DNA of 64,000 nucleotides, from the NCBI GenBank assembly GCA_964016885.1, contig OZ024741.1:296174001-296238000 (forward strand), given 5' to 3'. A program made the position numbers and the translations under genes. The DNA comes from Eledone cirrhosa. Taxonomy: Eukaryota. Numbering within the stretch: the first letter of the stretch is position 1; each line of letters begins with the position of its first letter. Below the pieces are notes generated by a model, which was given only the letters and a program-made list of their open reading frames with translations, searched no databases and was not told the DNA's origin. Below, piece by piece: positions 10,253 through 46,421 of the stretch.

Positions 10253-10284
10253 ACCTTTCCTCTCTCTCTTTTTAACCTGCCAAC

Positions 10285-13206: not shown

Positions 13207-13352
13207 GACGCCATGCTTTGCAGCACAGTTACGTCCCTTTACGGACTGAGTTCAAATCCCGCCGAGGTTAACTTTGCCTTTCATCCTTACGGGGTCAATA
13301 AAATAAAGTACCAGTAATATAATTGCTGGCCTTGTGCCAAAAGTAGAAACAA
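13207..13352 (+). mobile_element. SINE family A, 5'-truncated
   Basis: gacgccatgctttgcagc...gagttcaaatccc...gcctttcatccttacggggtcaataaaataaagtaccag...gtgccaaaagtagaaacaatt matches 29471-29660. Confidence 0.85.
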
Positions 13353-13729: not shown

Positions 13730-16700
13730 GCTACCACCATCTCCAGCCTCAGTACTGGGCCTATTATACCACCACCACCACCACCATCTCCAGCCTCAGT
13801 ACTGGGCCTATTATACCACCACCACCACCACCCTCCCCAACCTCAGTACTGGGCCTATTATACCACCACCACCACCACCCTCTCCAGCCTCAGTACTGGG
13901 CCTATTATACCACCACCACCACCACCATCTCCAGCCTCAGTACTGGGCCTATTATACCACCACCACCACCACCCTCCCCAACCTCAGTACTGGGCCTATT
14001 ATACCACCACCACCACCACCCTCCCCAACCTCAGTACTGGGCCTATTATACCACCACCACCACCACCCTCTCCAGCCTCAGTACTGGGCCTATTATACCA
14101 CCACCACCACCACCATCTCCAGCCTCAGTACTGGGCCTATTATACCACCACCACCACCACCCTCCCCAACCTCAGTACTGGGCCTATTATACCACCACCA
14201 CCACCACCCTCTCCAGCCTCAGTACTGGGCCTATTATACCACCACCACCACCACCATCTCCAGCCTCAGTACTGGGCCTATTATACCACCACCACCACCA
14301 CCCTCCCCAACCTCAGTACTGGGCCTATTATACCACCACCACCACCACCCTCTCCAGCCTCAGTACTGGGCCTATTATACCACCACCACCACCACCCTCT
14401 CCAGCCTCAGTACTGGGCCTATTATACCACCACCACCACCCTCCCCAACCACAGTACTGGGCCTATTATACCACCAGCACCACCACTATCTCCAGCCTCA
14501 GTACTGGGCCTATTATACCACCACCACCACCACCCTCCCCAACCTCAGTACTGGGCCTATTATACCACCACCACCACCACCATCTCCAGCCTCAGTACTG
14601 GGCCTATTATACCACCACCACCACCACCATCTCCAGCCTCAGTACTGGGCCTATTATAACACCACCACCACCACCCTCCGCAACCACAGTACTGGGCCTA
14701 TTATACCACCACCACCCTCCCCAACCACAGTACGGGGCCTATTATACCACCACCACCACCACCCTCCCCAACCTCAGTACTGGGCCTATTATACCACCAC
14801 CACCACCACCACCCTCTCCAGCCTCAGTACTGGGCCTATTATACCACCACCACCACCACCATCTCCAGCCTCAGTACTGGGCCTATTATAACACCACCAC
14901 CACCACCCTCCGCAACCACAGTACTGGGCCTATTATACCACCACCACCCTCCCCAACCACAGTACTGGGCCTATTATACCACCACCACCACCACCCTCCC
15001 CAACCTCAGTACTGGGCCTATTATACCACCACCACCACCACCACCACCCTCTCCAGCCTCAGTACTGGGCCTATTATACCATCACCACCACCACCCTCTC
15101 CAGCTTCAGTACTGGGCCTATTATACCACCACCACCACCACCCTCCCCAACCTCAGTACTGGGCCTATTATACCACCACCACCACCACCACCACCACCCT
15201 CCCCAACCTCAGTACTGGGCCTATTATACCACCACCACCACCACCACCACCACCCTCTCCAGCCTCAGTACTGGGCCTATTATACCACCACCACCACCAC
15301 CACCACCACCCTCTCCAGCCTCAGTACTGGGCCTATTGTACCACCACCACCACCACCACCACCACCCTCTCCAGCCTCAGTACTGGGCGTATTATACCAC
15401 CACCACCACCACCACCACCACCCTCTCCAGCCTCAGTACTGGGCCTATTATACCACCACCACCACCACCACCATCTCCAGCCTCAGTACTGGGCCTATTA
15501 TACCACCACCACCACCACCACCCTCCCCAACCACAGTACTGGGCCTATTATACCATCACCACCACCACCCTCTCCAGCCTCAGTACTGGGCCTATTATAC
15601 CACCACCACCACCACCCTCCCCAACCTCAGTACTGGGCCTATTATACCACCACCACCACCACCACCATCTCCAGCCTCAGTACTGGGCCTATTATACCAC
15701 CACCACCACCACCCTCCCCAACCTCAGTACTGGGCCTATTATACCACCACCACCACCACCATCTCCAGCCTCAGTACTGGGCCTATTATACCACCACCAC
15801 CACCACCATCTCCAGCCTCAGTACTGGGCCTATTATACCACCACCACCACCACCCTCCCCAACCTCAGTACTGGGCCTATTATACCACCACCACCACCAC
15901 CACCACCAAACCTCTCCAGCCTCAGTACTGGGCCTATTATACCACCACCACCACCACCATCTCCAGCCTCAGTACTGGGCCTATTATACCACCACCACCA
16001 CCACCATCTCCAGCCTCAGTACCGGGCCTATTATACCACCACCACCACCACTCTCCCCAACCTCAGTACTGGGCCTATTATACAACCACCACCACCACCA
16101 TCTCCAGCCTCAGTACCGGGCCTATTATACCACCACCACCACCACCCTCCCCAACCTCAGTACTGGGCCTATTATACCACCACCACCACCATCCTCCCCA
16201 ACCTCAGTACTGGGCCTATTATACCACCACCACCACCACCACCACCACCATCTCCAGCCTCAGTACCGGGCCTATTATACCACCACCATCACCACCATCT
16301 CCAGCCTCAGTACTGGGCCTATTATACCACCACCACCACCACCACCACCACCACCATCTCCAGCCTCAGTACTGGGCCTATTATACCACCACCACCACCC
16401 TCCCCAACCACAGTACTGGGCCTATTATACCACCACCACCACCACCCTCCCCAACCTCAGTACTGGGCCTATTATACCACCACCACCACCACCCTCCCCA
16501 ACCTCAGTACTGGGCCTATTATACCACCACCACCACCACCCTCCCCAACCTCAGTACTGGGCCTATTATACCACCACCACCCTCCCCAACCTCAGTACTG
16601 GGCCTATTATACCACCACCATCACCACCACCACCCTCTACAGCCTCAGTACTGGGCCTATTATACCACCACCACCACCACCCTCTCCAGCCTCAGTACTG

Positions 16701-19700
16701 GGCCTATTATACCACCACCACCACCACCCTCCCCAACCTCAGTACTGGGCCTATTATACCACCACCACCCTCCCCAACCACAGTACTGGGCCTATTATAC
16801 CACCACCACCACCACCCTCCCCAACCTCAGTACTGGGCCTATTATACCACCAGCACCACCCTCCGCAACCACAGTACTGGGCCTATTATACCACCACCAC
16901 CACCACCCTCCCCAACCTCAGTACTGGGTCTATTATACCACCACCACCACCACCATCTCCAGCCTCAGTATTGGGCCTATTATACCACCACCACCCTCCC
17001 CAACCACAGTACTGGGCCTATTATACCACCACCACCACCACCCTCCCCAACCTCAGTACTGGGCCTATTATACCACCACCACCACCACCCTCCCCAACCT
17101 CAGTACTGGGCCTATTATACCACCACCACCACCACCATCTCCAGCCTCAGTACTGGGCCTATTATACCACCACCACCACCACCCTCCCCAACCACAGTAC
17201 TGGGCTTATTATACCACCACCACCACCACCACCCTCCGCAACCTCAGTACTGGGCCTATTATACCACCACCACCACCACCCTCTCCAGCCTCAGTACTGG
17301 GCCTATTATACCACCACCACCACCACCCTCCCCAACCTCAGTACTGGGCCTATTATAACACCACCACCACCCTCCCCAACCACAGTACTGGGCCAATTAT
17401 ACCACCACCACCACCACCCTCCCCAACCTCAGTACTGGGCCTATTATACCACCACCACCCTCCCCAACCACAGTACTGGGCCTATTATACCACCACCACC
17501 CTCCCCAACCTCAGTACTGGGCCTATTATACCACCACCACCACCACCATCTCCAGCCTCAGTACTGGGCCTATTATACCACCACCACCACCACCCTCCCC
17601 AACCTCAGTACTGGGCCTATTATACCACCACCACCACCACCATCTGCAGCCTCAGTACTGGGCCTATTATACCACCACCACCACCCTCCCCAACCTCAGT
17701 ACTGGGCCTATTATACCACCACCACCACCACCATCTCCAGCCTCAGTACTGGGCCTATTATACCACCACCACCACCACCATCTCCAGCCTCAGTACTGGG
17801 CCTATTATACCACCACCACCACCACCCTCCCCAACCTCAGTACTGGGCCTATTATACCACCACCACCACCACCGTCTCCAGCCTAAGTACTGGGCCTATT
17901 ATACCACCACCACCACCACCCTCCCCAACCTCAGTACTGGGCCTATTATACCACCACCACCACCACCATCTCCAGCCTCAGTACTGGGCCTATTATACCA
18001 CCACCACCACCCTCCCCAACCACAGTACTGGGCCTATTATACCACCACCACCACCACCACCATCTCCAGCCGAAGTACTGGGCCTATTATACCACCACCA
18101 CCACCACCCTCCCCAACCTCAGTACTGGGCCTATTATACCACCACCACCACCACTGTCTCCAGCCTAAGTACTGGGCCTATTATACCACCACCACCACCA
18201 CCCTCCCCAACCTCAGTACTGGGCCTATTATACCACCACCACCACCACCCTCCCCAACCTCAGTACTGGGCCTATTATACCACCACCACCACCACCCTCC
18301 CCAACCTCAGTACTGGGCCTATTATACCACCACCACCCTCCCCAACCTCAGTACTGGGCCTATTATACCACCACCATCACCACCACCACCCTCTACAGCC
18401 TCAGTACTGGGCCTATTATACCACCACCACCACCACCCTCTCCAGCCTCAGTACTGGGCCTATTATACCACCACCACCACCACCCTCCCCAACTTCAGTA
18501 CTGGGCCTATTATACCACCACCACCACCACCCTCCCCAACCTCAGTACTGGGTCTATTATACCACCACCACCACCACCATCTCCAGCCTCAGTACTGGGC
18601 CTATTATACCACCACCACCACCACCCTCCCCAACCACAGTACTGGGCCTATTATAACACCACCACCACCACCATCTCCAGCCTCAGTACTGGGCCTATTA
18701 TACCACCACCACCACCACCATCTCCAGCCTCAGTACTGGGCCTATTATACCACCACCACCACCACCCTCCCCAACCACAGTACTGGGCCTATTATAACAC
18801 CACCACCACCACCATCTCCAGCCTCAGTACTGGGCCTATTATACCACCACCACCACCACCATCTCCAGCCTCAGTACTGGGCCTATTATACCACCACCAC
18901 CACCACCATCTCCAGCCTCAGTACTGGGCCTATTATACCACCACCACCACCACCCTCCCCAACCACAGTACTGGGCCTATTATACCACCACCACCACCAC
19001 CCTCCCCAGCCTCAGTACTGGGCCTATTATACCACCACCACCACCACCATCTCCAGCCTCAGTACTGGGCCTATTATACCACCACCACCACCACCCTCCC
19101 CAACCACAGTACTGGGCCTATTATACCACCACCACCACCACCTTCCCCAGCCTCAGTACTGGGCCTATTATACCACCACCACCACCACCATCTCCAGCCT
19201 CAGTACTGGGCCTATTATACCACCACCACCACCACCATCTCCAGCCTCAGTACTGGGCCTATTATACCACCACCACCACCCTCCCCAACCACAGTACTGG
19301 GCCAATTATACCACCACCACCACCACCCTCCCCAACCTCAGTACTGGGCCTATTATACCACCACCACCCTCCCCAACCACAGTACTGGGCCTATTATACC
19401 ACCACCACCCTCCCCAACCTCAGTACTGGGCCTATTATACCACCACCACCACCACCATCTCCAGCCTCAGTACTGGGCCTATTATACCACCACCACCACC
19501 ACCATCTCCAGCCTCAGTACTGGGCCTATTATACCACCACCACCACCACCATCTCCAGCCTCAGTACTGGGCCTATTATACCACCACCACCACCACCCTC
19601 CCCAACCTCAGTACTGGGCCTATTATAACACCACCACCACCACCCTCCCCAACCACAGTACTGGGCCAATTATACCACCACCACCACCACCCTCCCCAAC

Positions 19701-22700
19701 CTCAGTACTGGGCCTATTATACCACCACCACCCTCCCCAACCACAGTACTGGGCCTATTATACCACCACCACCCTCCCCAACCTCAGTACTGGGCCTATT
19801 ATACCACCATCACCACCATCTCCAGCCTCAGTACTGGGCCTATTATACCACCACCACCACCACCCTCCCCAACCTCAGTACTGGGCCTATTATACCACCA
19901 CCACCACCACCATCTGCAGCCTCAGTACTGGGCCTATTATACCACCACCACCACCACCCTCCCCAACCTCAGTACTGGGCCTATTATACCACCACCACCA
20001 CCACCATCTCCAGCCTCAGTACTGGGCCTATTATACCACCACCACCACCACCATCTCCAGCCTCAGTACTGGGCCTATTATACCACCACCACCACCACCC
20101 TCCCCAACCTCAGTACTGGGCCTATTATACCACCACCACCACCACCGTCTCCAGCCTAAGTACTGGGCCTATTATACCACCACCACCACCACCCTCCCCA
20201 ACCTCAGTACTGGGCCTATTATACCACCACCACCATCTCCAGCCTCAGTACTGGGCCTATTATACCACCACCACCACCACCACCATCTCCAGCCTCAGTA
20301 CTGGGCCTATTATACCACCACCACCACCACCCTCCCCAACCTCAGTACTGGGCCTATTATACCACCACCACCACCACCCTCCCCAACCACAGTACTGGGC
20401 CTATTATACCATCACCACCACCACCCTCTCCAGCCTCAGTACTGGGCCTATTATACCACCACCACCACCACCCTCCCCAACCTCAGTACTGGGCCTATTA
20501 TACCACCACCACCACCACCACCATCTCCAGCCTCAGTACTGGGCCTATTATACCACCACCACCACCACCCTCCCCAACCTCAGTACTGGGCCTATTATAC
20601 CACCACCACCACCACCATCTCCAGCCTCAGTACTGGGCCTATTATACCACCACCACCACCACCATCTCCAGCCTCAGTACTGGGCCTATTATACCACCAC
20701 CACCACCACCCTCCCCAACCTCAGTACTGGGCCTATTATACCACCACCACCACCACCACCACCACCCTCTCCAGCCTCAGTACTGGGCCTATTATACCAC
20801 CACCACCACCACCATCTCCAGCCTCAGTACTGGGCCTATTATACCACCACCACCACCACCATCTCCAGCCTCAGTACCGGGCCTATTATACCACCACCAC
20901 CACCACCCTCCCCAACCTCAGTACTGGGCCTATTATACCACCACCACCACCACCATCTCCAGCCTCAGTACCGGGCCTATTATACCACCACCACCACCAC
21001 CCTCCCCAACCTCAGTACTGGGCCTATTATACCACCACCACCACCACCCTCCCCAACCTCAGTACTGGGCCTATTATACCACCACCACCACCACCACCAC
21101 CACCATCTCCAGCCTCAGTACCGGGCCTATTATACCACCACCATCACCACAATCTCCAGCCTCAGTACTGGGCCTATTATACCACCACCACCACCACCAC
21201 CACCATCTCCAGCCTCAGTACTGGGCCTATTATACCACCACCACCACCCTCCCCAACCACAGTACTGGGCCTATTATACCACCACCACCACCACCCTCCC
21301 CAACCTCAGTACTGGGCCTATTATACCACCACCACCACCACCCTCCCCAACCTCAGTACTGGGCCTATTATACCACCACCACCACCACCCTCCCCAACCT
21401 CAGTACTGGGCCTATTATACCACCACCACCCTCCCCAACCTCAGTACTGGGCCTATTATACCACCACCATCACCACCACCACCCTCTACAGCCTCAGTAC
21501 TGGGCCTATTATACCACCACCACCACCACCCTCTCCAGCCTCAGTACTGGGCCTATTATACCACCACCACCACCACCCTCCCCAACCTCAGTACTGGGCC
21601 TATTATACCACCACCACCCTCCCCAACCACAGTACTGGGCCTATTATACCACCACCACCACCACCCTCGCCAACCTCAGTACTGGGCCTATTATACCACC
21701 AGCACCACCCTCCGCAACCACAGTACTGGGCCTATTATACCACCACCACCACCACCCTCCCCAACCTCAGTACTGGGTCTATTATACCACCACCACCACC
21801 ACCATCTCCAGCCTCAGTATTGGGCCTATTATACCACCACCACCCTCCCCAACCACAGTACTGGGCCTATTATACCACCACCACCACCACCCTCCCCAAC
21901 CTCAGTACTGGGCCTATTATACCACCACCACCACCACCCTCCCCAACCTCAGTACTGGGCCTATTATACCACCACCACCACCACCATCTCCAGCCTCAGT
22001 ACTGGGCCTATTATACCACCACCACCACCACCCTCCCCAACCACAGTACTGGGCTTATTATACCACCACCACCACCACCACCCTCCCCAACCTCAGTACT
22101 GGGCCTATTATACCACCACCACCACCACCCTCTCCAGCCTCAGTACTGGGCCTATTATACCACCACCACCACCACCATCTCCAGCCTCAGTACTGGGCCT
22201 ATTATACCACCACCACCACCACCCTCCCCAACCTCAGTACTGGGCCTATTATAACACCACCACCACCCTCCCCAACCACAGTACTGGGCCAATTATACCA
22301 CCACCACCACCACCCTCCCCAACCTCAGTACTGGGCCTATTATACCACCACCACCCTCCCCAACCACACTACTGGGCCTATTATACCACCACCACCCTCC
22401 CCAACCTCAGTACTGGGCCTATTATACCACCACCACCACCACCATCTCCAGCCTCAGTACTGGGCCTATTATACCACCACCACCACCACCCTCCCCAACC
22501 TCAGTACTGGGCCTATTATACCACCACCACCACCACCATCTGCAGCCTCAGTACTGGGCCTATTATACCACCACCACCCTCCCCAACCTCAGTACTGGGC
22601 CTATTATACCACCACCACCACCACCATCTCCAGCCTCAGTACTGGGCCTATTATACCACCACCACCACCACCATCTCCAGCCTCAGTACTGGGCCTATTA

Positions 22701-25700
22701 TACCACCACCACCACCACCCTCACCAACCTCAGTACTGGGCCTATTATACCACCACCACCACCACCGTCTCCAGCCTAAGTACTGGGCCTATTATACCAC
22801 CACCACCACCACCACCCTCCCCAATCTCAGTACTGGGCCTATTATACCACCACCACCACCACCATCTCCAGCCTCAGTACTGGGCCTATTATACCACCAC
22901 CACCACCCTCCCCAACCACAGTACTGGGCCTATTATACCACCACCACCACCACCACCATCTCCAGCCTCAGTACTGGGCCTATTATACAACCACCACCAC
23001 CACCCTCCCCAACCTCAGTACTGGGCCTATTATACCACCACCACCACCACCGTCTCCAGCCTAAGTACTGGGCCTATTATACCACCACCACCACCACCCT
23101 CCCCAACCTCAGTACTGGGCCTATTATACCACCACCACAACCACCCTCCCCAACCTCAGTACTGGGCCTATTATACCACCACCACCACCACCCTCCCCAA
23201 CCTCAGTACTGGGCCTATTATACCACCACCACCCTCCCCAACCTCAGTACTGGGCCTATTATACCACCACCATCACCACCACCACCCTCTACAGCCTCAG
23301 TACTTGGCCTATTATACCACCACCACCACCACCCTCTCCAGCCTCAGTACTGGGCCTATTATACCACCACCACCACCACCCTCCCCAACCTCAGTACTGG
23401 GCCTATTATACCACCACCACCCTCCCCAACCACAGTACTGGGCCTATTATACCACCACCACCACCACCCTCCCCAACCTCAGTACTGGGTCTATTATACC
23501 ACCACCACCACCACCATCTCCAGCCTCAGTATTGGGCCTATTATACCACCACCACCCTGCCCAACCACAGTACTGGGCCTATTATACCACCACCACCACC
23601 ACCCTCCCCAACCTCAGTACTGGGCCTATTATACCACCACCACCACCACCATCTCCAGCCTCAGTACTGGGCCTATTATACCACCACCACCACCACCCTC
23701 CCCAACCACAGTACTGGGCCTATTATACCACCACCACCACCACCACCCTCCCCAGCCTCAGTACTGGGCCTATTATACCACCACCACCACCACCATCTCC
23801 AGCCTCAGTACTGGGCCTATTATACCACCACCACCACCACCCTCCCCAACCTCAGTACTGGGCCTATTATAACACCACCACCACCCTCCCCAACCACAGT
23901 ACTGGGCCAATTATACCACCACCACCACCACCCTCCCCAACCTCAGTACTGGGCCTATTATACCACCACCACCCTCCCCAACCACAGTACTGGGCCTATT
24001 ATACCACCACCACCCTCCCCAACCTCAGTACTGGGCCTATTATACCACCACCACCACCACCATCTCCAGCCTCAGTACTGGGCCTATTATACCACCACCA
24101 CCACCACCCTCCCCAACCTCAGTACTGGGCCTATTATACCACCACCACCACCACCATCTGCAGCCTCAGTACTGGGCCTATTATACCACCACCACCACCC
24201 TCCCCAACCTCAGTACTGGGCCTATTATACCACCACCACCACCACCATCTCCAGCCTCAGTACTGGGCCTATTATACCACCACCACCACCACCATCTCCA
24301 GCCTCAGTACTGGGCCTATTATACCACCACCACCACCACCCTCCCCAACCTCAGTACTGGGCCTATTATACCACCACCACCACCACCGTCTCCAGCCTAA
24401 GTACTGGGCCTATTATACCACCACCACCACCACCACCCTCCCCAACCTCAGTACTGGGCCTATTATACCACCACCACCATCTCCAGCCTCAGTACTGGGC
24501 CTATTATACCACCACCACCACCACCACCATCTCCAGCCTCAGTACTGGGCCTATTATACCACCACCACCACCACCCTCCCCAACCTCAGTACTGGGCCTA
24601 TTATACCACCACCACCACCACCCTCCCCAACCACAGTACTGGGCCTATTATACCACCACCACCACCACCCTCCCCAACCTCAGTACTGGGCCTATTATAC
24701 CACCACCATCACCACCATCTCCAGCCTCAGTACTGGGCCTATTATACCACCACCACCACCCTCCCCAACCACAGTACTGGGCCTATTATACCACCACCAC
24801 CACCACCATCTCCAGCCTCAGTACTGGGCCTATTATACCACCACCACCACCACCATCTCCAGCCTCAGTACTGGGCCTATTATACCACCACCACCACCAC
24901 CCTCCCCAACCTCAGTACTGGGCCTATTATACCACCACCACCACCACCATCTCCAGCCTCAGTACTGGGCCTATTATACCACCACCACCACCACCATCTC
25001 CTGCCTCAGTACTGGGCCTATTATACCACCACCACCACCACCCTCTCCAGCCTCAGTACTGGGCCTATTATACCACCACCACCACCACCATCTCCAGCCT
25101 CAGTACTGGGCCTATTATACCACCACCACCACCACCATCTCCAGCCTCAGTACTGGGCCTATTATACCACCACCACCACCACCATCTCCAGCCTCAGTAC
25201 TGGGCCTATTATACCACCACCACCACCACCATCTCCAGCCTCAGTACTGGGCCTATTATACCACCACCACCACCACCATCTCCAGCCTCAGTACTGGGCC
25301 TATTATACCACCACCACCACCACCCTCCCCAACCTCAGTACTGGGCCTATTATACCACCACCACCACCACCATCTCCAGCCTCAGTACTGGGCCTATTAT
25401 ACCACCACCACCACCCTCCCCAACCACAGTACTGGGCCTATTATACCACCACCACCACCATCTCCAGCCTCAGTACCGGGCCTATTATACCACCACCACC
25501 ACCACCCTCCCCAACCTCAGTACTGGGCCTATTATACCACCACCACCACCACCATCTCCAGCCTCAGTACTGGGCCTATTATACCACCACCACCACCACC
25601 CTCCCCAACCTCAGTACTGGGCCTATTATACCACCACCACCACCACCCTCCCCAACCTCAGTACTGGGCCTATTATACCACCACCACCACCACCACCACC

Positions 25701-27709: not shown

Positions 27710-27712
<3 letters not shown>

Positions 27713-28137
27713 CCAAAGATTAATATGGTTCGTTGATTACTCAACGAATACAATATTACAATAGATTAGAAGCACTCAACTAGAGATTTTCCTGCAGTTT
27801 TTAATATTATTCAAAATGTAAATAAATGAAAAATATTCTCATAATCAAAATATATATTTCATTATACATATTTCAAAGGTACAATGGTGTTTAAGTATGT
27901 TTTCATCAGACAAAATATATGATTTGATATGTGACATAGCGCTACAGTTTTGATTAGTCAATTCTAGTATTAGCAATACTGGAATTGAATAATCAAATCC
28001 GTAGCGCTATGTCACATATCAAATCATATATTTTGTCTGATAAAAACGTACTTAAACACCATTGTACCTTTGAAATATGTATAATAAAATATATATTTTG
28101 ATTATGAGAATATTTTTCATTTATTAACATTTTGAAT
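27710..28137 (-). mobile_element. Fold-back PLE pLTR-like remnant (329 bp palindrome 27809-28137 + tail 27710-27808) with degenerate HHRs
   Basis: Near-perfect hairpin centred at about 27973. On the minus strand the left arm reads ATATATTTTGT-CTGATGA-stem II-GAAA-TATGTA-TA-ATGAAATATAT. The right arm has the core mutated to CTGATAA. Confidence 0.7.
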
Positions 28138-28311
28138 CCATACGTACATATATATATGTGTGTATGTATGTATATATATACATACTAGTGTACGTCTGTA
28201 TACATGTATACATACTTATATTTAAGTATCAGCCGTACTAAGAGTGAGAAATGAAATTTCATTTTTTCCATTTACCGTTTTCGGTACACCCGGCCGACTA
28301 ACTCACTCGAT

Positions 28312-28319
28312 ATGCAAAT
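28312..28319 (+). promoter_or_regulatory. Octamer motif ATGCAAAT, conserved in both retrozyme-like subfamilies
   Basis: actcactcgatATGCAAATtaggctg here; actcacactctATGCAAATtagtctg on the minus strand of every full 466-bp unit (first at 33063-33070). Function is inferred. Confidence 0.45.
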
Positions 28320-28393
28320 TAGGCTGCTCAGCCGTTAATATGCATAAGTAAAGTATATACTTTCAAACGTTCAATCGACTGACAGGAAGGTAT

Positions 28394-28436
28394 ACGGTGC
28401 TGATGACAGCTAATACGCTAGAAACTAGTTCATCGT
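28394..28436 (+). ncRNA. Minimal type I hammerhead ribozyme
   Basis: ACGGTG-CTGATGA-cAGC taatac GCTa-GAAA-CTAG-TT-CATCGT. Stem I is 6 bp with one G-U pair, stem III is the palindrome ACTAGT, the triplet is GUU, and there is a C.A mismatch at the base of stem II. Confidence 0.8.
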
Positions 28437-28647
28437 TCCTTAGTCAGTGTTGAACAAAAGGGCAACGATGGTTGCCGAACACTGTACGGCTACTAATTCG
28501 GGCTGTTTGTTTACAAACAAACCGAGCATTATAATAAATGTTCGATGAACCCATACGTACATATATATATATATATGTGTGCATATATGTATGTATATAC
28601 ATAGTAGTATACGTCTGTATACATATATGTATGTACGTATACAAACT

Positions 28648-28714
<67 letters not shown>

Positions 28715-29840: not shown

Positions 29841-30000
29841 TCGAGGGTCAGGGTCCGACGGCTGAGTTTTGGGAACTTTCTGTCGAAACGGCAAGAGTTC
29901 AGCCGTCGGGCCATGACTCTCTACAGTCTACTATTCCAAGTATCGAGTACTCTGCTGAATTATAGTCTTACTAGTTTAAAACTGGTGTAATCCTGATACC
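29841..30000 (+). mobile_element. Short fold-back element, family H (copy 1)
   Basis: Hairpin ccgacggctgag...ttcagccgtcgg, then tctacta..ccaagtatcgagtactctg, shared with the copies at 45908 and 63315. Confidence 0.6.
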
Positions 30001-30937: not shown

Positions 30938-32285
30938 TAATGAAAATAACACTTTCTTTATTGGCCACAAGGGCCGACATATAGGGGACAATACAAAAGA
31001 CAGGGACAGTTGGGGTTTACATGAATACGTGTAAACAATATAAATAACAATAAATAAGTAGAAAAATACAACAATGAAAATTCCCCAATAGGGGATAACC
31101 ACCCAGGGTCGACTCATGTACCCCACCAATCCTGAACCACCCGACACTTCATGGGCACCCGGGAAGGACACGCCTCTCCTCCTCCAATTCACCAGCCTAC
31201 AGGCGCCTGATCAGAGAGGCCCACTCACACGGGCCATTCTCACCACATTCACCCACCGTTTAGCAAATGTACTAGGGGCAGCACTTCTCTCTCCACCCTC
31301 ACCTTCCTTTCCAAGTGAAACTTGATGAGGGCTTGGCCGAGGAGGAAAGTCTTCAGACTTTTCAGTAGCACCCACCACACAACATCTTTCGCTACATCTA
31401 TCAGACTGAGGAAAACTGCCTGCTCTTCCCGACCAAAAGAAGGCGACGAGGCGATCTTCACTATAGACTCGGATCCGTCCCACACGCGATAACAGCTGTT
31501 CGACATAACTACATAAGTTAGCATACACGGGCACTGGACGAATGCGTGCAAAACAGTTTCATCGCTCTGCGCGTATCTCGGACAGGTCCCTCTGACAGTC
31601 CTACCGTGCATGTAGAAATTATCTCGAACCAGCAGGGTTCCTCGGTAGCACTGCCAAGCGAGGGATTTCTGGAAATTGTCTATAGTCCCCGGCTCGAAAA
31701 TCCTCCGGAAAAGACTGGCTAGAATCTCTCCGAGAGCGTCGTCACACTTGCCGAAAAACTAATCCTCTATAGCACTCTAGAGTGGAAGTTCCACTGACTG
31801 CATTGCCCACTTTGTAGAGGGCAGTTAGTGCCTGGCAACATTCCTGATGCTAAGCACCCAGTCTCGGTTTCTTTTTGACCCAGAACTGCAGCTCAGTCAG
31901 AGAGACAAGCTGCGGAAAGGCCCGTCTCACAAACAGCGACCACACCTGTTCACCGTTAAGGCAGAATATCTGGAGATACCACAGCATCAGCGCATGTTTG
32001 CTTATCATTAGCCACGGCATGCCAAGCCCTCCGCGTACAGGGTACTGACAGCAGATGGACCGCCTCACCAACGGAACCTATCCCCTCCACAAGAATTTGA
32101 AGAGGAACCGCTCCAATTTGGTGAGGCACGAGTACGGGGGCAAGGCACGACGGTCAGGCGGTAGTAGATGACGGACGCGATGTATGCGTCCGCTACATCC
32201 ACCCGACTTTTCAGAGACAGCTTCCTCGCAGCCCACTTCTGAGTGAGAGTGGCCACCCTGATCGTAACTTCATCCCAATTTCTAT
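30938..32285 (-). mobile_element. 3' fragment of the Tx1/L1-type LINE family
   Basis: The minus-strand translations NWDEVTIRVATLTQKW...YIASVIYYRLTVVPC, GGLGMPWLM and CPRYAQSDETVLHAFVQC match 12420-13206. AATAAA lies near 30957-30962 on the minus strand. Confidence 0.9.
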
Positions 32286-32673
32286 CCACATGGATAGTCA
32301 GGCTGGCTGTTTTTGAAACTAACATACAATAGACATCACCGCTCAGCCTGTTTTCCTCTATTACCTCTTCTTACCTTCTTCTTTGCCTGTATGTTGGACT
32401 ACACTCCTTGTTATTCTCTTCTGTTTTACTATTTCCCTCCTTTCTATATTTTTTTCTCCTTTGGCTAAACCGTTGAGCACTATATTTTTGTAATTTTCCT
32501 AATGGTATAATATGTTTCTACCTGTTTTGTTATGTCCCAATGTGCACTGGAATGAACGGTTAGACCTTGAAGAACCGAAACCGTAGTGATTCCCTGAAGT
32601 CGACTCAGGAGATGGGATTGTCTGTCTTTCCGTTGATTTTTTTTTGCATTGTTTTTTCCTGTGCGCCTCTACT

Positions 32674-32711
<38 letters not shown>

Positions 32712-32717
<6 letters not shown>

Positions 32718-35700
32718 GTTAAAAATGTACATCCACATATGTATACTGAAATACTAGTATGCATATGAATACACACACGTATACATATGTAGATGTACCG
32801 AGTTTTTCACTGGTCACTTTACTGTGCGTGTCCAGCTATTCTGTATGTAAACACACAGACAAACCGGTTTTTAGAGTCATACTGGTTTTTGAGGAAACAC
32901 CTTTCCTCTATTCTCCAGAAAGCCAGACAAGGAATATTGAACTAGTTTCGATGTTGTTACATCTCATCAGCAATATTTACCTATCTTCCGGCCTCTCTAG
33001 AGAATCGTAAAAGCACATATCGTTATATGCTTTTTCTATGAAAATTAGTAGTGGGCAGACTAATTTGCATAGAGTGTGAGTACGTACCGGTTCAACGGAG
33101 ACGATAAAAACAAATAACGAAACGAAATTAAATTTCGTTTCGTTTGTAACTCACTTTTGTATGACTGACGCTTAAACAATTAAGTTAAAAATGTACATCC
33201 ACATATGTATACTGAAATACTAGTATGCATATGAATACACACACGTATACATATGTAGATGTACCGAGTTTTTCACTGGTCACTTTACTGTGCGTGTCCA
33301 GCTATTCTGTATGTAAACACACAGACAAACCGGTTTTTAGAGTCATACTGGTTTTTGAGGAAACACCTTTCCTCTATTCTCCAGAAAGCCAGACAAGGAA
33401 TATTGAACTAGTTTCGATGTTGTTACATCTCATCAGCAATATTTACCTATCTTCCGGCCTCTCTAGAGAATCGTAAAAGCACATATCGTTATATGCTTTT
33501 TCTATGAAAATTAGTAGTGGGCAGACTAATTTGCATAGAGTGTGAGTACGTACCGGTTCAACGGAGACGATAAAAACAAATAACGAAACGAAATTAAATT
33601 TCGTTTCGTTTGTAACTCACTTTTGTATGACTGACGCTTAAACAATTAAGTTAAAAATGTACATCCACATATGTATACTGAAATACTAGTATGCATATGA
33701 ATACACACACGTATACATATGTAGATGTACCGAGTTTTTCACTGGTCACTTTACTGTGCGTGTCCAGCTATTCTGTATGTAAACACACAGACAAACCGGT
33801 TTTTAGAGTCATACTGGTTTTTGAGGAAACACCTTTCCTCTATTCTCCAGAAAGCCAGACAAAGAATATTGAACTAGTTTCGATGTTGTTACATCTCATC
33901 AGCAATATTTACCTATCTTCCGGCCTCTCTAGAGAATCGTAAAAGCACATATCGTTATATGCTTTTTCTATGAAAATTAGTAGTGGGCAGACTAATTTGC
34001 ATAGAGTGTGAGTACGTACCGGTTCAACGGAGACGATAAAAACAAATAACGAAACGAAATTAAATTTCGTTTCGTTTGTAACTCACTTTTGTATGACTGA
34101 CGCTTAAACAATTAAGTTAAAAATGTACATCCACATATGTATACTGAAATACTAGTATGCATATGAATACACACACGTATACATATGTAGATGTACCGAG
34201 TTTTTCACTGGTCACTTTACTGTGCGTGTCCAGCTATTCTGTATGTAAACACACAGACAAACCGGTTTTTAGAGTCATACTGGTTTTTGAGGAAACACCT
34301 TTCCTCTATTCTCCAGAAAGCCAGACAAGGAATATTGAACTAGTTTCGATGTTGTTACATCTCATCAGCAATATTTACCTATCTTCCGGCCTCTCTAGAG
34401 AATCGTAAAAGCACATATCGTTATATGCTTTTTCTATGAAAATTAGTAGTGGGCAGACTAATTTGCATAGAGTGTGAGTACGTACCGGTTCAACGGAGAC
34501 GATAAAAACAAATAACGAAACGAAATTAAATTTCGTTTCGTTTGTAACTCACTTTTGTATGACTGACGCTTAAACAATTAAGTTAAAAATGTACATCCAC
34601 ATATGTATACTGAAATACTAGTATGCATATGAATACACACACGTATACATATGTAGATGTACCGAGTTTTTCACTGGTCACTTTACTGTGCGTGTCCAGC
34701 TATTCTGTATGTAAACACACAGACAAACCGGTTTTTAGAGTCATACTGGTTTTTGAGGAAACACCTTTCCTCTATTCTCCAGAAAGCCAGACAAGGAATA
34801 TTGAACTAGTTTCGATGTTGTTACATCTCATCAGCAATATTTACCTATCTTCCGGCCTCTCTAGAGAATCGTAAAAGCACATATCGTTATATGCTTTTTC
34901 TATGAAAATTAGTAGTGGGCAGACTAATTTGCATAGAGTGTGAGTACGTACCGGTTCAACGGAGACGATAAAAACAAATAACGAAACGAAATTAAATTTC
35001 GTTTCGTTTGTAACTCACTTTTGTATGACTGACGCTTAAACAATTAAGTTAAAAATGTACATCCACATATGTATACTGAAATACTAGTATGCATATGAAT
35101 ACACACACGTATACATATGTAGATGTACCGAGTTTTTCACTGGTCACTTTACTGTGCGTGTCCAGCTATTCTGTATGTAAACACACAGACAAACCGGTTT
35201 TTAGAGTCATACTGGTTTTTGAGGAAACACCTTTCCTCTATTCTCCAGAAAGCCAGACAAGGAATATTGAACTAGTTTCGATGTTGTTACATCTCATCAG
35301 CAATATTTACCTATCTTCCGGCCTCTCTAGAGAATCGTAAAAGCACATATCGTTATATGCTTTTTCTATGAAAATTAGTAGTGGGCAGACTAATTTGCAT
35401 AGAGTGTGAGTACGTACCGGTTCAACGGAGACGATAAAAACAAATAACGAAACGAAATTAAATTTCGTTTCGTTTGTAACTCACTTTTGTATGACTGACG
35501 CTTAAACAATTAAGTTAAAAATGTACATCCACATATGTATACTGAAATACTAGTATGCATATGAATACACACACGTATACATATGTAGATGTACCGAGTT
35601 TTTCACTGGTCACTTTACTGTGCGTGTCCAGCTATTCTGTATGTAAACACACAGACAAACCGGTTTTTAGAGTCATACTGGTTTTTGAGGAAACACCTTT

Positions 35701-36664
35701 CCTCTATTCTCCAGAAAGCCAGACAAGGAATATTGAACTAGTTTCGATGTTGTTACATCTCATCAGCAATATTTACCTATCTTCCGGCCTCTCTAGAGAA
35801 TCGTAAAAGCACATATCGTTATATGCTTTTTCTATGAAAATTAGTAGTGGGCAGACTAATTTGCATAGAGTGTGAGTACGTACCGGTTCAACGGAGACGA
35901 TAAAAACAAATAACGAAACGAAATTAAATTTCGTTTCGTTTGTAACTCACTTTTGTATGACTGACGCTTAAACAATTAAGTTAAAAATGTACATCCACAT
36001 ATGTATACTGAAATACTAGTATGCATATGAATACACACACGTATACATATGTAGATGTACCGAGATTTTCACTGGTCACTTTACTGTGCGTGTCCAGCTA
36101 TTCTGTATGTAAACACACAGACAAACCGGTTTTTAGAGTCATACTGGTTTTTGAGGAAACACCTTTCCTCTATTCTCCAGAAAGCCAGACAAGGAATATT
36201 GAACTAGTTTCGATGTTGTTACATCTCATCAGCAATATTTACCTATCTTCCGGCCTCTCTAGAGAATCGTAAAAGCACATATCGTTATATGCTTTTTCTA
36301 TGAAAATTAGTAGTGGGCAGACTAATTTGCATAGAGTGTGAGTACGTACCGGTTCAACGGAGACGATAAAAACAAATAACGAAACGAAATTAAATTTCGT
36401 TTCGTTTGTAACTCACTTTTGTATGACTGACGCTTAAACAATTAAGTTAAAAATGTACATCCACATATGTATACTGAAATACTAGTATGCATATGAATAC
36501 ACACACGTATACATATGTAGATGTACCGAGTTTTTCACTGGTCACTTTACTGTGCGTGTCCAGCTATTCTGTATGTAAACACACAGACAAACCGGTTTTT
36601 AGAGTCATACTGGTTTTTGAGGAAACACCTTTCCTCTATTCTCCAGAAAGCCAGACAAGGAATA
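32712..36664 (-). repeat. Tandem array of 8 full + 1 partial (225 bp) 466-bp hammerhead-containing units (retrozyme-like)
   Basis: Units start at 32712 + 466n. Only two substitutions were noticed across the array (about 33863 and 36065). Each full unit has one HHR. The left end abuts (TA)n. Confidence 0.95.
32933..32977 (-). ncRNA. Minimal type I hammerhead ribozyme, first of 8 (others start at 33399, 33865, 34331, 34797, 35263, 35729, 36195)
   Basis: Minus strand reads AATATTG-CTGATGA-GATGT aaca ACATC-GAAA-CTAG-TT-CAATATT. It has a perfect 7-bp stem I, a 5-bp stem II, an intact core and the palindromic stem III ACTAGT. The GUU cleavage site falls between 32940 and 32939. Confidence 0.9.
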
Positions 36665-36762
36665 CCTTAGAGTAATAACATTACGTTTAGACAGCTTTGC
36701 AAATTGAAAATTGCCACCGGTAAGCCAGCCGCAGGGACCAAAGCAACGAGAAAACTGACTCA

Positions 36763-36856
<94 letters not shown>

Positions 36857-37364
36857 ATACTTGGGGAGGGTCATATTTGTGTAATATTGCCAGAATTAAG
36901 AACAGAACACACTCACTGTTCGGTTGGTTTTCGCTTTTCGCTTCTGTGTCTTTTATATCGGTAATTTAATTTATTCGGTCCTCAATGTTGCCATTGACTG
37001 ACCAACGGTCAAAAATAATACAGATACAATATAGACACAAACACATATATATAGTTTATCATAAATCTTTCGTTGCACATCTGCAACATCGTCAGTGGTG
37101 CTATTGTTTCCTCCTGTTGAATTGTATGGCTACGCCATTTTTTTCAGTCTGTCTATATATTTATTTATTTATTTGCTTGTTTGTTTATTTTATTTTGTCT
37201 TCTTTGCGCATGCGTTTGCGTGTGTGTATAGTGTTTTGTTTGATGTGTGATGTGTGTTCGTGATTGGGTGACTAATGTGTGTTTATGTGTTTGTTGTTAT
37301 TGTGCTTGTGTATGTATTTATTTATTTATTTATTTATTTATTTTATTTTATTTTATTTACTTAT

Positions 37365-38046
37365 TTATACTTCTCTTAGGTCAGTGTTGTTTGTTTGGGT
37401 GTTGTTGTTATTCCATTCATTCTTTCTGTTTAGTCTTGGTCTTCTAAGTTCTATTTCACTGGCCTCTCTGATTTGCCTATCTGCTGGGTCATTTCTATGT
37501 TTAGATATTATTCTAATTTCTATGTTGTCTATGTTACCGTCATGTTGTTGTCTGGCATGTTCGTATAGTACTGACCCGTTTTTTCGTCCTTTTAGTTCCC
37601 CCCAATGTTGGTCTATCCTTTCACCTATGCTACGAGCTGTCTCACCTATGTATGTTGTTGTCATGTTTCTGCAGGTACCCTCTGTACATCTTATGCTATA
37701 GACTACGTTTCTAGTTTTACAGTTTATCCGGTGCTTTACCTTACATATGATACACTTCCTATTGGTACAGTGGGTTTTCTTAAAAGGGTAGGTTTTGGTG
37801 ATCAGGGATTTTATGGTGGTTCCTGGCTTTTCTACCACCTTAATTTTTAAGTGGGTCTTTCTCAGGGCCTTTCTACACTGGTTAGCTAATTTCCCTCCAG
37901 GGGTAGCGTCCACAAACATGATACTCTGGTATCTCTGGTTGTCGTACCATGAGGTGGCTTTCCCTATCTTATGTCTAGCCCTATCTAAGCTATTCCATGA
38001 TTTGCTCCTGTATAATGGGCAAATTCCTTTCATGTCCAGTTCTATG
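37365..38046 (-). pseudogene. Inverted duplicate of the PLE GIY-YIG coding region
   Basis: The 222-aa ORF is almost identical to the C-terminus of ORF 38615-39982. Confidence 0.92.
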
Positions 38047-39982
38047 CCAACAACTTCCAGGCGTCTAACAATGGCATACTACCCTTGTATGGGTTCCGCA
38101 AAGACCACAAGACAGTCGACGACCCGACAACAGGACCACCAACAAGACCCGTATGCGGAGCTAATATAGCTAGTAACTACAGGATCTCCTACTTCCTCTC
38201 AATGGTTATACGCCCCATAATCAAGATGTCCCCGGATGTATGTGACAGTACAGAGTACCTCCTCAGCAGAATCAGTGAGTGCAACAAAAACAGGAACCTA
38301 TCCAACTGCATAATAGGCAGCATGGATGTTGTGTCACTGTACCCATCCATTAACATTGATTTTGCTGTGAAAAAATGTGTGGAGATGATCATTGAGAGTG
38401 AGGTGGAGTTCTGCGACGTCGACACAGACGAACTGGGCCTCCTACTTAGACTTACCTACGACACTGACTACCTAGACAGCCATGACCTTAGACGTTTCTG
38501 CCCTAGTAGACCCATAAGAGGTAGACCCCCCACCATAACCTCAATGGCAAAAAAGACTCCCATGGGTGGACCAAAGCTATACGGACCCCCCAAAACAATG
38601 ATCAGGTAAGAAAAATGGTCGCACATGCAATAGGAGCTAGTATCAAAACTACCCTCAAGGGCCACATATTTAAGTTCAACGAGAAGATCTACACCCAAAA
38701 TGAAGGAGCAGCCATTGGCGTCAGCATAGCTGATGATGTTGCCAACCTTTTCATGGTTTGGTGGGAAAGGAGACTTAAATATCTCCTTAATGAGAGCTCC
38801 ATAGACCTCATCATGTACTCTCGTTATGTAGACGATATCAATATAGTTATAAGAACATCCCCACTAGAGAGCACTAACAAGTTTGATTTAGAACGTAGCA
38901 CAATGGAAAGCATCCAGCAGATAGCTAATTCCATACACCAGAGTATAACTGTAACTATCGACTTCCCTTCCAAACACCCTAACAATAGACTACCTGTATT
39001 AGACACAGAACTCTGGATTAACACTATAGACGAGAGAGCCCAAATTCTCCACTCACACTATGCTAAACCCATGGCCTCCAAATACCTGATACTCAAAAAC
39101 TCAGCAATGTCCAGTAGTGCTAAGTTTAATATTCTGATCGCAGATTTGGTACGAGTGATGAAGAATGTGTCCCGCATGTGCGATCCAACAGAAATGGAAA
39201 GACACATCCAACACTTCATCAACCGCATGCAGTTCTCTGGCTACAACCAAAGAGACAGAGTCAGAGTATACGAAGGAGCCATGGAGAAGTATAAGACCCT
39301 CATAGAACTGGACATGAAAGGAATTTGCCCATTATACAGGAGCAAATCATGGAATAGCTTAGATAGGGCTAGACATAAGATAGGGAAAGCCACCTCATGG
39401 TACGACAACCAGAGATACCAGAGTGTCATGTTTGTGGACGCTACCCCTGGAGGGAAATTAGCTAACCAGTGTAGAAAGGCCCTGAGAAAGACCCACTTAA
39501 AAATTAAGGTGGTAGAAAAGCCAGGAACCACCATAAAATCCCTGATCAGCAAAACCTACCCTTTTAAGAAAACCCACTGTACCAATAGGAAGTGTATCAT
39601 ATGTAAGGTAGAGCCCCGGATAAACTGTAAAACTAGAAACGTAGTCTATAGCATAAGATGTACAGAGGGTACCTGCAGAAACATGACAACAACATACATA
39701 GGTGAGACAGCTCGTAGCATAGGTGAAAGGATAGACCAACATTGGGGGGAACTAAAAGGACGAAAAAACGGGTCAGTACTATACGAACATGCCAGACAAC
39801 AACATGACGGTAACATAGACAACATAGAAATTAGAATAATATCTAAACATAGAAATGACCCAGCAGATAGGCAAATCAGAGAGGCCAGTGAAATAGAACT
39901 TAGAAGACCAAGACTAAACAGAAAGAATGAATGGAATAACAACAACACCCAAACAAACAACACTGACCTAAGAGAAGTATAA
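38047..39982 (+). pseudogene. PLE reverse transcriptase + C-terminal GIY-YIG endonuclease (5'-truncated, one frameshift near 38545-38615)
   Basis: RT motifs: PLYGFRKDHK, RPVCG, MDVVSLYPSI, QNEGAAIG, YSRYVDD, LPVLD. Linker CTNRKCIIC...NC. GIY-YIG motifs: NVVYSIRC...YIGETARSIGERIDQH...REASEI...PRLN. Confidence 0.93.
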
Positions 39983-40256
39983 ATAAGTAAATAAAATAAA
40001 ATAAAATAAATAAATAAATAAATAAATAAATAAATACATACACAAGCACAATAACAACAAACACATAAACACACATTAGTCACCCAATCACGAACACACA
40101 TCACACATCAAACAAAACACTATACACACACGCAAACGCATGCGCAAAGAAGACAAAATAAAATAAACAAACAAGCAAATAAATAAATAAATATATAGAC
40201 AGACTGAATAAAAATGGCGTAGCCATACAATTCAACAGGAGGAAACAATAGCACCA

Positions 40257-40296
40257 CTGACGATGTTGCAGATGTGCAACGAAAGATTTATGATAA
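40257..40296 (+). ncRNA. HHR-like core in the PLE pLTR (inverted copy about 37056-37095)
   Basis: CTGACGA-t-GTTGCA gatg TGCAAC-GAAA followed by a bulged stem III ending in CUA. The stem I partner is not adjacent, so the fold is incomplete. Confidence 0.45.
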
Positions 40297-40568
40297 ACTA
40301 TATATATGTGTTTGTGTCTATATTGTATCTGTATTATTTTTGACCGTTGGTCAGTCAATGGCAACATTGAGGACCGAATAAATTAAATTACCGATATAAA
40401 AGACACAGAAGCGAAAAGCGAAAACCAACCGAACAGTGAGTGTGTTCTGTTCTTAATTCTGGCAATATTACACAAATATGACCCTCCCCAAGTATAACAA
40501 TATTTGTTTCGACACACGATTTCATATAAAAAACCTCGCAAAACTAAATCACCGCCGTTATATATATA

Positions 40569-42159: not shown

Positions 42160-42481
42160 ACAAAACAAAAACAAATGATGTAACAAAAAATCGAAACTAA
42201 AGAAAATTCCCCAATAGAGGGGAGAGTTCCGAGGGTTAACCGTGGAGAAAGCCCACAAAAACCACAGTCAACCTGATCGCCAGGGCAAGTTCCTCTCCCA
42301 GGTGTCCTCCTTCAGAGCATGCACATTTACTCGGGTCATTCTCGCCTCTTTCACCCACATTTCAACAAATTGCTTTGAAGGCAGCACTTCCTTCTCCACC
42401 CTGATTTTCCTCTTCAAGTGAAACCTGAAGAAGTTAATCAAGGGGTCGCCGAAAACAAAAGTTCCCGTCTTCAGCCAATTC
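42160..42481 (-). mobile_element. Tx1/L1-type LINE 3' fragment
   Basis: Minus-strand FFRFHLKRKIRVEKEVL and a 3' UTR similar to 7710-7960. Confidence 0.8.
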
Positions 42482-42483
42482 AA

Positions 42484-43275
42484 ATAATAATAATTTCTTT
42501 ATTAGCCACAAGGGCCGATATATGGGGGACAACACAATAGACAGAGACAGTGGGCGTTTTACAAAAAAAATCGAGTAAACAATATAAAAACAATAACAAT
42601 AAGCAATATGATTATAACAATACAAATTCCCCAACCGGGGGACTCAGGAACCTTACCAATCCTGAACCACCCGACACTCCGAGAGCACCCGAGGAGGGTG
42701 CTCCTCTCCTCTCCAAGTCAGCCAACTTGCAGGCGGATGGTAAGTGTAGGCCCATTCACACAGGCCATCCTCTCCATATTCACCCACCTTTTAGCAAAGT
42801 GAAACTTGAAAAAGTTGATGAGAGATTGGCCGAACGAAGAAAAACATATTCCGTCTTCAGTCGTTTCAGCCTCGTCCACCACACAACCTTTTTCGCTACA
42901 GCTACTAGGCAGAGGAAAAGTGTCTGCTCTTCTCGACCAAAAGAAGGCGGAGGAGTGATCTTCATGGTGGACTCAGCCGATAGCCGAATCCCACATGCGA
43001 TAACAGCTGTTCGACATAATTCCACAAGTCAGTAATGCATAGACACTGGACGAATGCGTATAGAACGGTTTCGTCGCTCTGCACGATCTTGGACAGGGAT
43101 TTCTGGAAGTTACTCATAGTCCCCTGCTCGAAAGTCCTCCCGAGCAGACTGGTCAGTTCGATTTCGCCGGCACCCAGCACCTCTTAGAAAGCGTCGTCGC
43201 ACTTACTCACTACTAATTGTCTATAGAACTCTAGAGTGGAATTTCCACTGACCGCATTGTCCGCCTGGTAGAGGA
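42484..43275 (-). mobile_element. Tx1/L1-type LINE 3' fragment with (ATT)n tail
   Basis: QSDETVLYAFVQC region and 3' UTR. The minus strand reads ctaataaagaaattattattattt at about 42484-42505. Confidence 0.85.
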
Positions 43276-45250: not shown

Positions 45251-45892
45251 GGAGGTTGTTTTTCGTTATTTCGTGGGCCGAAATGCGAATCTCGATAATT
45301 TATGTTTGTATTTATCTCCAGACTCTAGCTATTGACCAGTTAATTTTCTTGATTTTTTAGTTGATTCTATTGACTGATGAATAGCTTATGTTAATTTTAA
45401 CCCTTCTGTTGAGAACTCTATTCGATTTGTGATGTTTTTGCATTCTTGCAAAAATATACACAACTGAATTTATTCGCCTGATATAGGGGCTGCCTCCCTT
45501 GCCGACCCCCACGTGGAGTCAGCAATAGTCAGTCCTTGTATTAACATTGAACTAAAACCTGTTGAGAAAGTGGCTTCCTTGTTCAATCATCTTACTAGAA
45601 GCCTGACATTATTTATGTAAGCGGACGGTACTTGATTTAGGAGCCGCAGAAACCCAAATACTGGATTTTACCAACTTTCCAGGGGTCCGGGTAAATTTTC
45701 AATACCCGAATTACTTGATCGTTTTTTTGGCTATGCGAATGATTGTTTTAACCATCGTCTCAGTGTGTTTGGCATTTAACGTTTGTTATAGCTCTGGTTC
45801 ATCTGAACCATTGAGCACTTGCCTCACATCTCGGAGGTTGTTTTTCGTTATTTCGTGGGCCGAAATGCGAATCTCGATAATTTATGTTTGTA
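45251..45892. mobile_element. Unclassified element with about 60-bp terminal direct repeats, inserted in (TA)n
   Basis: ggaggttgtttttcgttatttcgtgggccgaaatgcgaatctcgataatttatgtttgtat occurs at 45251 and 45833 (period 582). Confidence 0.6.
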
Positions 45893-45907
45893 TATATATA
45901 TATATAT

Positions 45908-46058
45908 ATGAAAAGTTTCAGGACCCCGACGGTTGAGCTCCGGTCGTTTCGACCGCCGTCGGGGTCCTGAATCTTTTCATATTACCCACTCTACTACCCA
46001 AGTATCGAGTACTCTGGTGGGCTATGGTCCACCTGGTATTTTACCACACCCTATCTGA
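45908..46058 (+). mobile_element. Short fold-back element, family H (copy 2)
   Basis: Hairpin atgaaaagtttcaggaccccgacgg...ccgtcggggtcctgaatcttttcat plus the shared tail; (TA)n flanks. Confidence 0.65.
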
Positions 46059-46231
46059 TATATATAAATATATATATATATAGTGCAAAATTGGACGGGA
46101 ACGAAAACAGAGAGGCAGACAAATAAAGGTTTATTAGGTTCACGCTCTTGAGAGTGTGTGTGTGTGGGGGGGGGTTATATATATATATATACGATATTAA
46201 CAAATGGAAACTATATTTATAAAACCATATT

Positions 46232-46296
46232 TATTTCATTATGCATATTTCAAGGACACCAAGTTAAATTATGGTGTGCTTTCATCAGATAAAATA
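46232..46296 (-). ncRNA. Type I HHR motif in a PLE-like remnant
   Basis: Minus strand reads TATTTTAT-CTGATGA-AAGcACACCA...TGGTGTcCTT-GAAA-TATGCA-TA-ATGAAATA. Its flank aatggaaactatatttataaaaccat is shared with 60820 and 63613. Confidence 0.65.
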
Positions 46297-46421
46297 TAAT
46301 ATAGATCAGTTTTATAAATAAATATTGACATACCCTTAAAAAATGCAACCATTTGTTGTGTGCTTTATATCAGTTATAAAAATATTTGCTTGTTGTATCC
46401 CAACAATTTAAATAGAACTTT

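Follow-up and report, generated by a model that had tools for sequence, protein, structure and literature searches.

Introduction

Metazoan non-LTR retrozymes have been described with units in the range of 150-450 nt, and PLEs have been proposed as their mobilisers (Cervera & de la Pena 2020, PMC7229834). According to the same paper, the enzyme that mobilises animal retrozymes and the way in which it is primed are an open question. A more recent preprint describes retrozymes as non-autonomous derivatives of PLEs, based on their co-occurrence in vertebrates and on pLTR homology (Li, Clavereau & Pollet, bioRxiv 10.64898/2026.07.22.740005). The protein of Poseidon_Ac, a PLE of Anolis, was shown to cut AT-rich DNA and to extend both strands, and its RT starts at two internal RNA sites, so that some copies carry a tail and others do not (Frangieh et al. 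2024, PMC11167929). Naiads have been reported with a bias for (TA)n and Neptune with a bias for microsatellites, together with inverted 5'-truncated copies and one-sided tails (Craig et al. 2021, PMC8557442).

Published work already covers retrozymes, their proposed dependence on PLEs, the PLE tail and the bias for (TA)n. In a literature search that took in few subscription papers and no supplements, which may hold such junctions, we found no report that retrozymes have fixed 3' ends, a tail or junctions with (TA)n, or that they occur in octopods. Here we describe two related repeats, a short copy (A) and a tandem array (B), in a window of 64 kb, which is the whole stretch of DNA that was analysed. 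What appears to be new is the junction evidence for the mobilisation of retrozymes by PLEs, which is a useful confirmation more than a surprise.

As far as they are described in PMC7229834, the known retrozymes resemble A and B: their non-coding units measure a few hundred bases and stand in tandem, with a GC content under 50%, one type I hammerhead each and a highly paired monomer. The stem III of A and B is very short and palindromic as in HHR_Amex1 of the axolotl, and the B unit of 466 nt is slightly over the range of unit lengths given there. As in the retrozymes of Li et al., tandem hammerhead units were found alongside EN+ PLEs. The evidence of that study consists of co-occurrence and pLTR homology, with no junction analysis in its main text, whereas A and B provide a junction signature and the pLTR of the neighbouring PLE is not homologous to them.

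Results and discussion

A and B are related hammerhead repeats

A and B were homologous, with 285 of 398 aligned bases identical (72%) and a local score of z=33 against shuffles, and in the shuffle comparison the similarity persisted without the TA-rich hairpin. The GC content of the units was about 0.35. A type I hammerhead was predicted in both (Table 1), with a CUGAUGA core, a stem II of 4-5 bp, a stem III of 2 bp and a stem I extended beyond a bulge. All eight full B units passed a structured hammerhead scan, which gave 0 matches in 20/20 shuffles. A carries one hammerhead, which the strict scan misses because of the C-A mismatch in stem II. When the hammerheads of A and B were compared, 5 of the 15 pairs were changed on both sides and 29 of the 30 cells were paired, for two sequences only, while the slid controls for this covariation gave at most 1. 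An Rfam search of B returned HH9 with 36.5 bits and an E value of 2.3e-6, short of the gathering score of 52, and an Rfam search of A returned no hammerhead row. The miRNA and sraA rows from Rfam were rejected as compositional and far below gathering.

Table 1. Features of the window and of the B unit discussed in the text.
Feature	Position	Strand	Remarks
Copy A, retrozyme	28138..28650	+	1.24 units (513/413) of 413 nt
Type I hammerhead of A	28388..28440	+	predicted cut after 28430; C-A mismatch at base of stem II; found by core-motif search
Terminal repeat of A	28551..28650	+	repeats 28138-28217; long hairpin with closing GTAC 14 nt before 3' end (fold)
(TA)30	28651..28711		at 3' junction of A
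Array B, retrozyme	32712..36664	-	8.48 units of 466 nt; 8 complete hammerheads
Type I hammerhead of B	32917..32988	-	every 466 nt; predicted cut after 32940; stem III with palindromic ACUAGU
(TA)17	32678..32711		at 3' junction of B
Unique segment, 100 nt	36665..36764		between 5' end of B and (TA)44 (36765-36852)
Short-end zone of B unit	33173..33178	-	run X1 records: 33173 = 6, 33178 = 2; (TA)n consensus
'Tail' of B unit	33104..33172	-	3' end 33104: 12 records of run X1 (+1 of X4), (TA)n consensus; after long perfect-stem hairpin
Head-to-head inverted dimer of family X	27809..28137		arms 163 nt, 95%; type I fold on left arm
Y, 97-nt extension of left X arm	27712..27808	-	ends on (TA)15 at 27681-27711
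Copies of family X	27809-28137, 46192-46334, 60805-60858, 63604-63748		AT-rich type I hammerhead repeat
5'-truncated PLE	36853..40558		189 bp from B; (TA)n at both 3' ends
Inverted arm of PLE	36853-38046	-	1.2-kb inverted copy: 1190 matches, 4 mismatches
Direct-copy frames of PLE	38016-38609, 38606-39982		RT to GIY-YIG, frameshifted

The fold of the A unit had an energy of -125.6 kcal/mol (z -6.5), and that of the B monomer was -163.2 kcal/mol (z -10.9). No stop-to-stop frame of at least 100 aa was found over B, the 167-aa frame over A had no Pfam match, and an ORF for RT plus GIY-YIG was absent from the frames over both units. Judged from their sequences, A and B are animal non-LTR retrozymes, hammerhead-bearing and non-coding, and the hammerhead motif predicts self-cleavage of their RNA.

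An octamer, ATGCAAAT, was seen in A at 28312-28319 (+) and in every B unit, at 33063-33070 (-) for example. It sits in a block, TATGCAAATTAG, which is identical in A and B and precedes the hammerhead core by about 90-100 nt. We take it to be the octamer motif of snRNA-gene enhancers, and it is possible that it acts as an internal promoter element. An exact 30-mer of B gave 0 matches in genome contigs and 0 in viral contigs. In metagenomes, all three matches to the hammerhead-core pattern (3/3) fell in the region of a bacterial pilin-like gene with no BLAST match to the units, and they were therefore dismissed as chance.

The 3' ends of A and B lie on (TA)n

The start of A at 28138, CCATACGTAC, was found again at 28551, confirming the terminal redundancy that had been claimed in the initial annotation. 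The two terminal repeats were not identical, with 74 matches and 6 substitutions (6/80) plus microsatellite-type indels. The 3' end of A, ...CAAACTTAA at 28650, was directly on (TA)30, and the minus-strand 3' end of B, ...TTAACTTAATT at 32712 (in another rendering of the terminal letters, ...AACTTAATT), was on (TA)17. The initial annotation had placed both ends at the same position of the unit; the units are indeed homologous and both ends are on (TA)n, but the positions are 2 nt apart and not identical. By simple arithmetic, two random ends would fall within +/-2 nt of each other on a unit of ~440 nt in about 1% of cases. The 64 kb contain 26 merged runs of at least six TA repeats, and since only about 0.2-0.3% of strand positions are within 3 nt of such a run, the location of the A and B ends on (TA)n is not due to chance. 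Eight of the nine 3' ends of hammerhead- or PLE-type arms in the window adjoined (TA)n and the ninth adjoined A; three outlying copies of family X were located by BLAST and not by their flanks.

Neither retrozyme 5' end was on (TA)n (0/2, A and B), and A and B began at different unit positions. No target-site duplication, which in non-LTR retrozymes exceeds 4 bp where one is present, was observed at the A junctions, and for B there was only one 6-mer, off the junction; such duplications are hard to see because microsatellite targets hide them. The 5' start of A was joined directly to an inverted dimer of the hammerhead repeat X (27809-28137), and hence the length of '1.2 units' does not mark a free 5' end. 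The 5' end of B was 3 nt past the predicted hammerhead cut, a coincidence of about 1.5% that was spotted post hoc. Since no multi-record pile of 5' ends near the cut (33402-33405) was present among the 10 of 45 loose-end entries listed for the public runs described below, it stays a single case. The 100-nt segment next to this end had no other copy within the 64-kb window.

The B units were 99% alike, with 2 private substitutions in the whole array. At unit position 33293 all nine B units had a C, and the base A made up 181566 of 181572 of the depth in run X1. As this C is common to all nine units, the array goes back to a single monomer. Either rolling-circle copying or a later amplification at the DNA level would explain this. 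The initial annotation had proposed more than one round of copying on a circular or multimeric template, with which B is compatible; for B, however, such copying is not separable from DNA amplification after insertion, and the terminal repeats of A differ by 6 of 80 bases.

Ends of the B family in public runs

Contigs of four public runs were aligned to one B unit (33060-33525), with the junction site inside. In run X1, which may be the window's own sample, 57 of the 1104 contigs were only partly on the B unit, contigs being junction variants and not loci, from which unique non-TA junctions may have been pruned. Among the 10 of 45 loose-end entries listed, three had more than one record, and all three were on the RNA-3' side with a (TA)n consensus (Table 1); the (TA)n junctions are known by consensus, with an agreement of 0.73-1.0. 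The most-recorded end was the tail end, 74 nt beyond the site used in the window, whose equivalent in the unit is 33178, and the two zones were 69-74 nt apart. These multi-record (TA)n entries made up 20 of the 57 partly aligned contigs of X1. Entries with a (TA)n consensus held 21 of the 23 3'-side records among the 10 of 45 entries listed, including one record from X4, which was not counted as independent. The single 3'-side entries at 33298 and 33299, by eye diverged unit sequence, were kept in the denominator. For 12 of 57 to share a single position out of 466, the nominal P is 3e-18. The 5'-side entries among the 10 of 45 listed were all single and scattered (4/4).

Hence, beyond the window, the 3' ends of the B family were not random and carried (TA)n, piling up in run X1. 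The initial annotation had called for one fixed priming site, and of this the non-random 3' ends stand, but there are at least two end zones, not one. The outcomes that it had named as refuting, random 3' ends or a lack of (TA)n enrichment at other loci, were not observed. A short end plus a tail end suggests internal initiation at two sites, as in PLEs, instead of one fixed site. In the fold, the ends lie just 3' of long hairpins. They miss all nine words of two or more TA in the unit, and therefore their position is not set by microhomology alone. Microhomology was rejected as their cause, since the ends avoid the TA-like words of the unit; with TA or AT endings at 19% of unit positions, small microhomologies are weak evidence.

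Part of B was contained in 20 of the 24 runs listed, from 17 coded organisms, and no contig of run X23 aligned to the B unit (0 contigs). Runs carrying the labels of 16 other organisms contained words of B, with shares of 0.04-0.52. The raw reads of organism D gave 0 of 12.8 million for B, and two same-sample runs had a share of 0.00, and thus B in the runs of other organisms is probably carry-over of a very abundant repeat. Horizontal spread of B is the less probable reading.

A PLE next to array B

The protein of the neighbouring PLE showed RT motifs and a CX4CxxC linker, of the CX2-5CxxC form expected in Neptune/Nematis PLEs, followed by YSIRC...YIGET, a GIY-YIG-type end. In Pfam it matched RVT_1 with an E value of 0.079 and had no match to GIY-YIG; 3 of the 8 homologs scanned matched GIY-YIG, below the cut-off, and the atlas clusters near it carry HTH_animal, RVT_1 and GIY-YIG. 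The best match of its RT, 65% identical, is labelled Octopus vulgaris, which makes an octopod the probable host. On these sequence features we classify it as a young PLE of the Neptune/Nematis type. One arm had a tail of ~55-59 nt, and the element thus has a short-end/tail-end pair, both on (TA)n. No homology was observed between A or B and its terminal repeat (z -0.8 to 1.4); with z at most 1.4, the neighbour was rejected as their parent. A hammerhead-like core was also seen near 40257 of the PLE (CUGACGA, 6-bp stem II, GAAA), which fails the strict type I scan.

Proposed mobilisation and alternative explanations

Since the two ends of the B family on (TA)n match the PLE signature, we consider it likely that A and B are two diverged non-autonomous retrozyme subfamilies and that an endonuclease-positive Neptune/Nematis-type PLE moves them in trans. 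The lack of homology to the terminal repeat of the neighbouring PLE, the two 5' ends away from (TA)n and the length of the tail count against this. The B family resembles Poseidon_Ac in its AT-rich target and in having one 3' end that includes a tail and another that lacks it; its tail of 74 nt compares to 30-40 nt in Poseidon_Ac and PLEs. In contrast to A and B, Poseidon_Ac as described there is autonomous, starts at an AC-rich stem-loop and cleaves at ATT and not at (TA)n (PMC11167929). With Naiad and Neptune the elements described here share the microsatellite bias, 5' truncation, an inverted truncated copy, a tail at one end and duplications that are hard to see, whereas those elements are autonomous, and the Naiads, according to the same account, are without canonical hammerheads and long inactive in cephalopods (PMC8557442). 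We regard the short-end/tail-end pair on (TA)n as a mechanistic fingerprint of PLE enzymes.

In the proposed mechanism, tandem units would be transcribed and able to self-cleave or circularise, as members of the retrozyme family are. A GIY-YIG endonuclease would nick (TA)n, as the PLE literature and the neighbouring elements suggest, and the nicked strand may then prime RT inside the RNA, at either of two structure-defined sites, whose positions are those of the observed ends. Site 1 would be 3' of the long hairpin closed by GTAC, at a distance of ~13-20 nt, and site 2 a further 74 nt on, after the next long hairpin. If copying on a circular or multimeric template continues past one unit and halts at scattered points, the inserts would be terminally redundant or tandem, which is the structure observed. 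The 5' end would finally be joined to other cDNA or to the flank, without visible duplication (2/2 copies). With the two RNA positions given exactly and a single DNA target named, the question of the mobiliser becomes a defined in vitro test, for which the Poseidon_Ac assay is published.

In a more speculative version, which we hold only tentatively and think rather doubtful, the PLE enzyme primes both strands of one (TA)n, for which it can use two different non-coding RNAs, and copies a monomeric retrozyme circle repeatedly, beginning at the structure-defined site. It would stop when the circle is reopened by the hammerhead or when it jumps to another RNA. The reopening is suggested by the 5' end of B, 3 nt from the cut, and the jump to the start site of another RNA by the exact fusion of A to the canonical 3' end of X. 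If true, rolling-circle target-primed reverse transcription would be recorded directly in the arrays, and a guild of hammerhead RNAs would be stacking at (TA)n runs, which would act as its hubs.

The proposed trans-mobilisation treats (TA)n as a target that probably existed before insertion and not as an added tail, on the strength of the PLE literature and the neighbouring elements. The ends could instead be fixed and the (TA)n made at insertion, by slippage or telomerase-like addition at a UA-rich start, or grown later from a short AT seed. Such an origin would fit the lack of (TA)n at either 5' end and of a duplication, the several end sites with 1-4 nt of TA-type microhomology, the restriction of TA-adjoining ends in the window to 3' ends, and the position of PLE RTs as sister to telomerase (PMC8557442). 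We nevertheless find it unlikely, given that no end site of the unit encodes (TA)n, that the PLE endonuclease cuts AT-rich DNA in vitro (PMC11167929), and that PLE papers take (TA)n as the target; in places, elements also enter the same run from both sides, as at the (TA)44 that separates the 100-nt segment from the PLE arm, which fits a shared target but is only suggestive. A second alternative takes A and B for solitary terminal repeats derived from the pLTR of an autonomous PLE, A being a 5'-truncated end and B having been amplified as DNA to 8.5 units after a 1.5-unit insertion, with no circular RNA. Li et al. (bioRxiv 10.64898/2026.07.22.740005) proposed local amplification of inserted terminal sequences, and the PLE-like end signature, the single hammerhead of A and the variant common to the nine B units, for which DNA-level amplification accounts, all agree with this. 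The coding results do not: no ORF of at least 100 aa lies over B and the frame over A is without a Pfam match. Moreover, the whole B monomer is strongly paired (z -10.9) with a hammerhead of canonical size, as in retrozymes, and A repeats its own start, so that unit follows unit with no ORF between. We thus regard the origin from solitary terminal repeats as quite improbable.

Coincidence or recombination, with breakage or conversion of TA-rich units at the (TA)n of a TA-rich genome, would draw on the 26 (TA)n runs in the window and on units with TA-like hairpins. This explanation is largely refuted, and we give it hardly any credence, because the ends avoid the TA-like tracts of the unit and pile up to 12 and 6 records at single positions against a background of 0.2-0.3%.

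Family X and other repeats of the window

In the inverted dimer of family X, the 3' end of the right arm was fused to the first base of A, in register with the three other X copies. The X copies ended ~47-54 nt after the predicted cut, and on (TA)n in all three outlying ones (3/3). The mismatches between the X arms (8/163) and between the terminal repeats of A (6/80) are compatible with one age (P 0.40). Y is possibly the tail of X. The segments 27712-27785 and 61832-61901 were related (70-90 nt, 72%), and both end at or near (TA)n; they too may be tails of X. In 32 comparisons of A or B with other elements, the best match, A against the X hairpin, had a score of 35 and z 4.0 and was too short for kinship to be claimed.

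A dispersed family at 29880-29967, 45884-46037 and 63289-63529 formed a strong hairpin around GTCGAAAC near (TA)n, and a hammerhead-core-like motif was seen with it at 63218 (-). Large satellites were located at 13733-25694, 49923-57347, 59029-60593 and 3880-4222, with units of 47, 36/72/108, 71 and 91 nt, and the structured scan detected no hammerheads in them. Decayed LINE copies (Exo_endo_phos, RVT_1, zf-RVT; BLAST) were observed at 10276-13317, 30945-32294, 42312-43274 and 7066-7674. Between an L1/Tx1-like LINE fragment and (TA)17, the stretch 32295-32677 contained a CTTGAAGA...CGAAAC motif, and this may be a further 3' end of PLE type, oriented towards array B.
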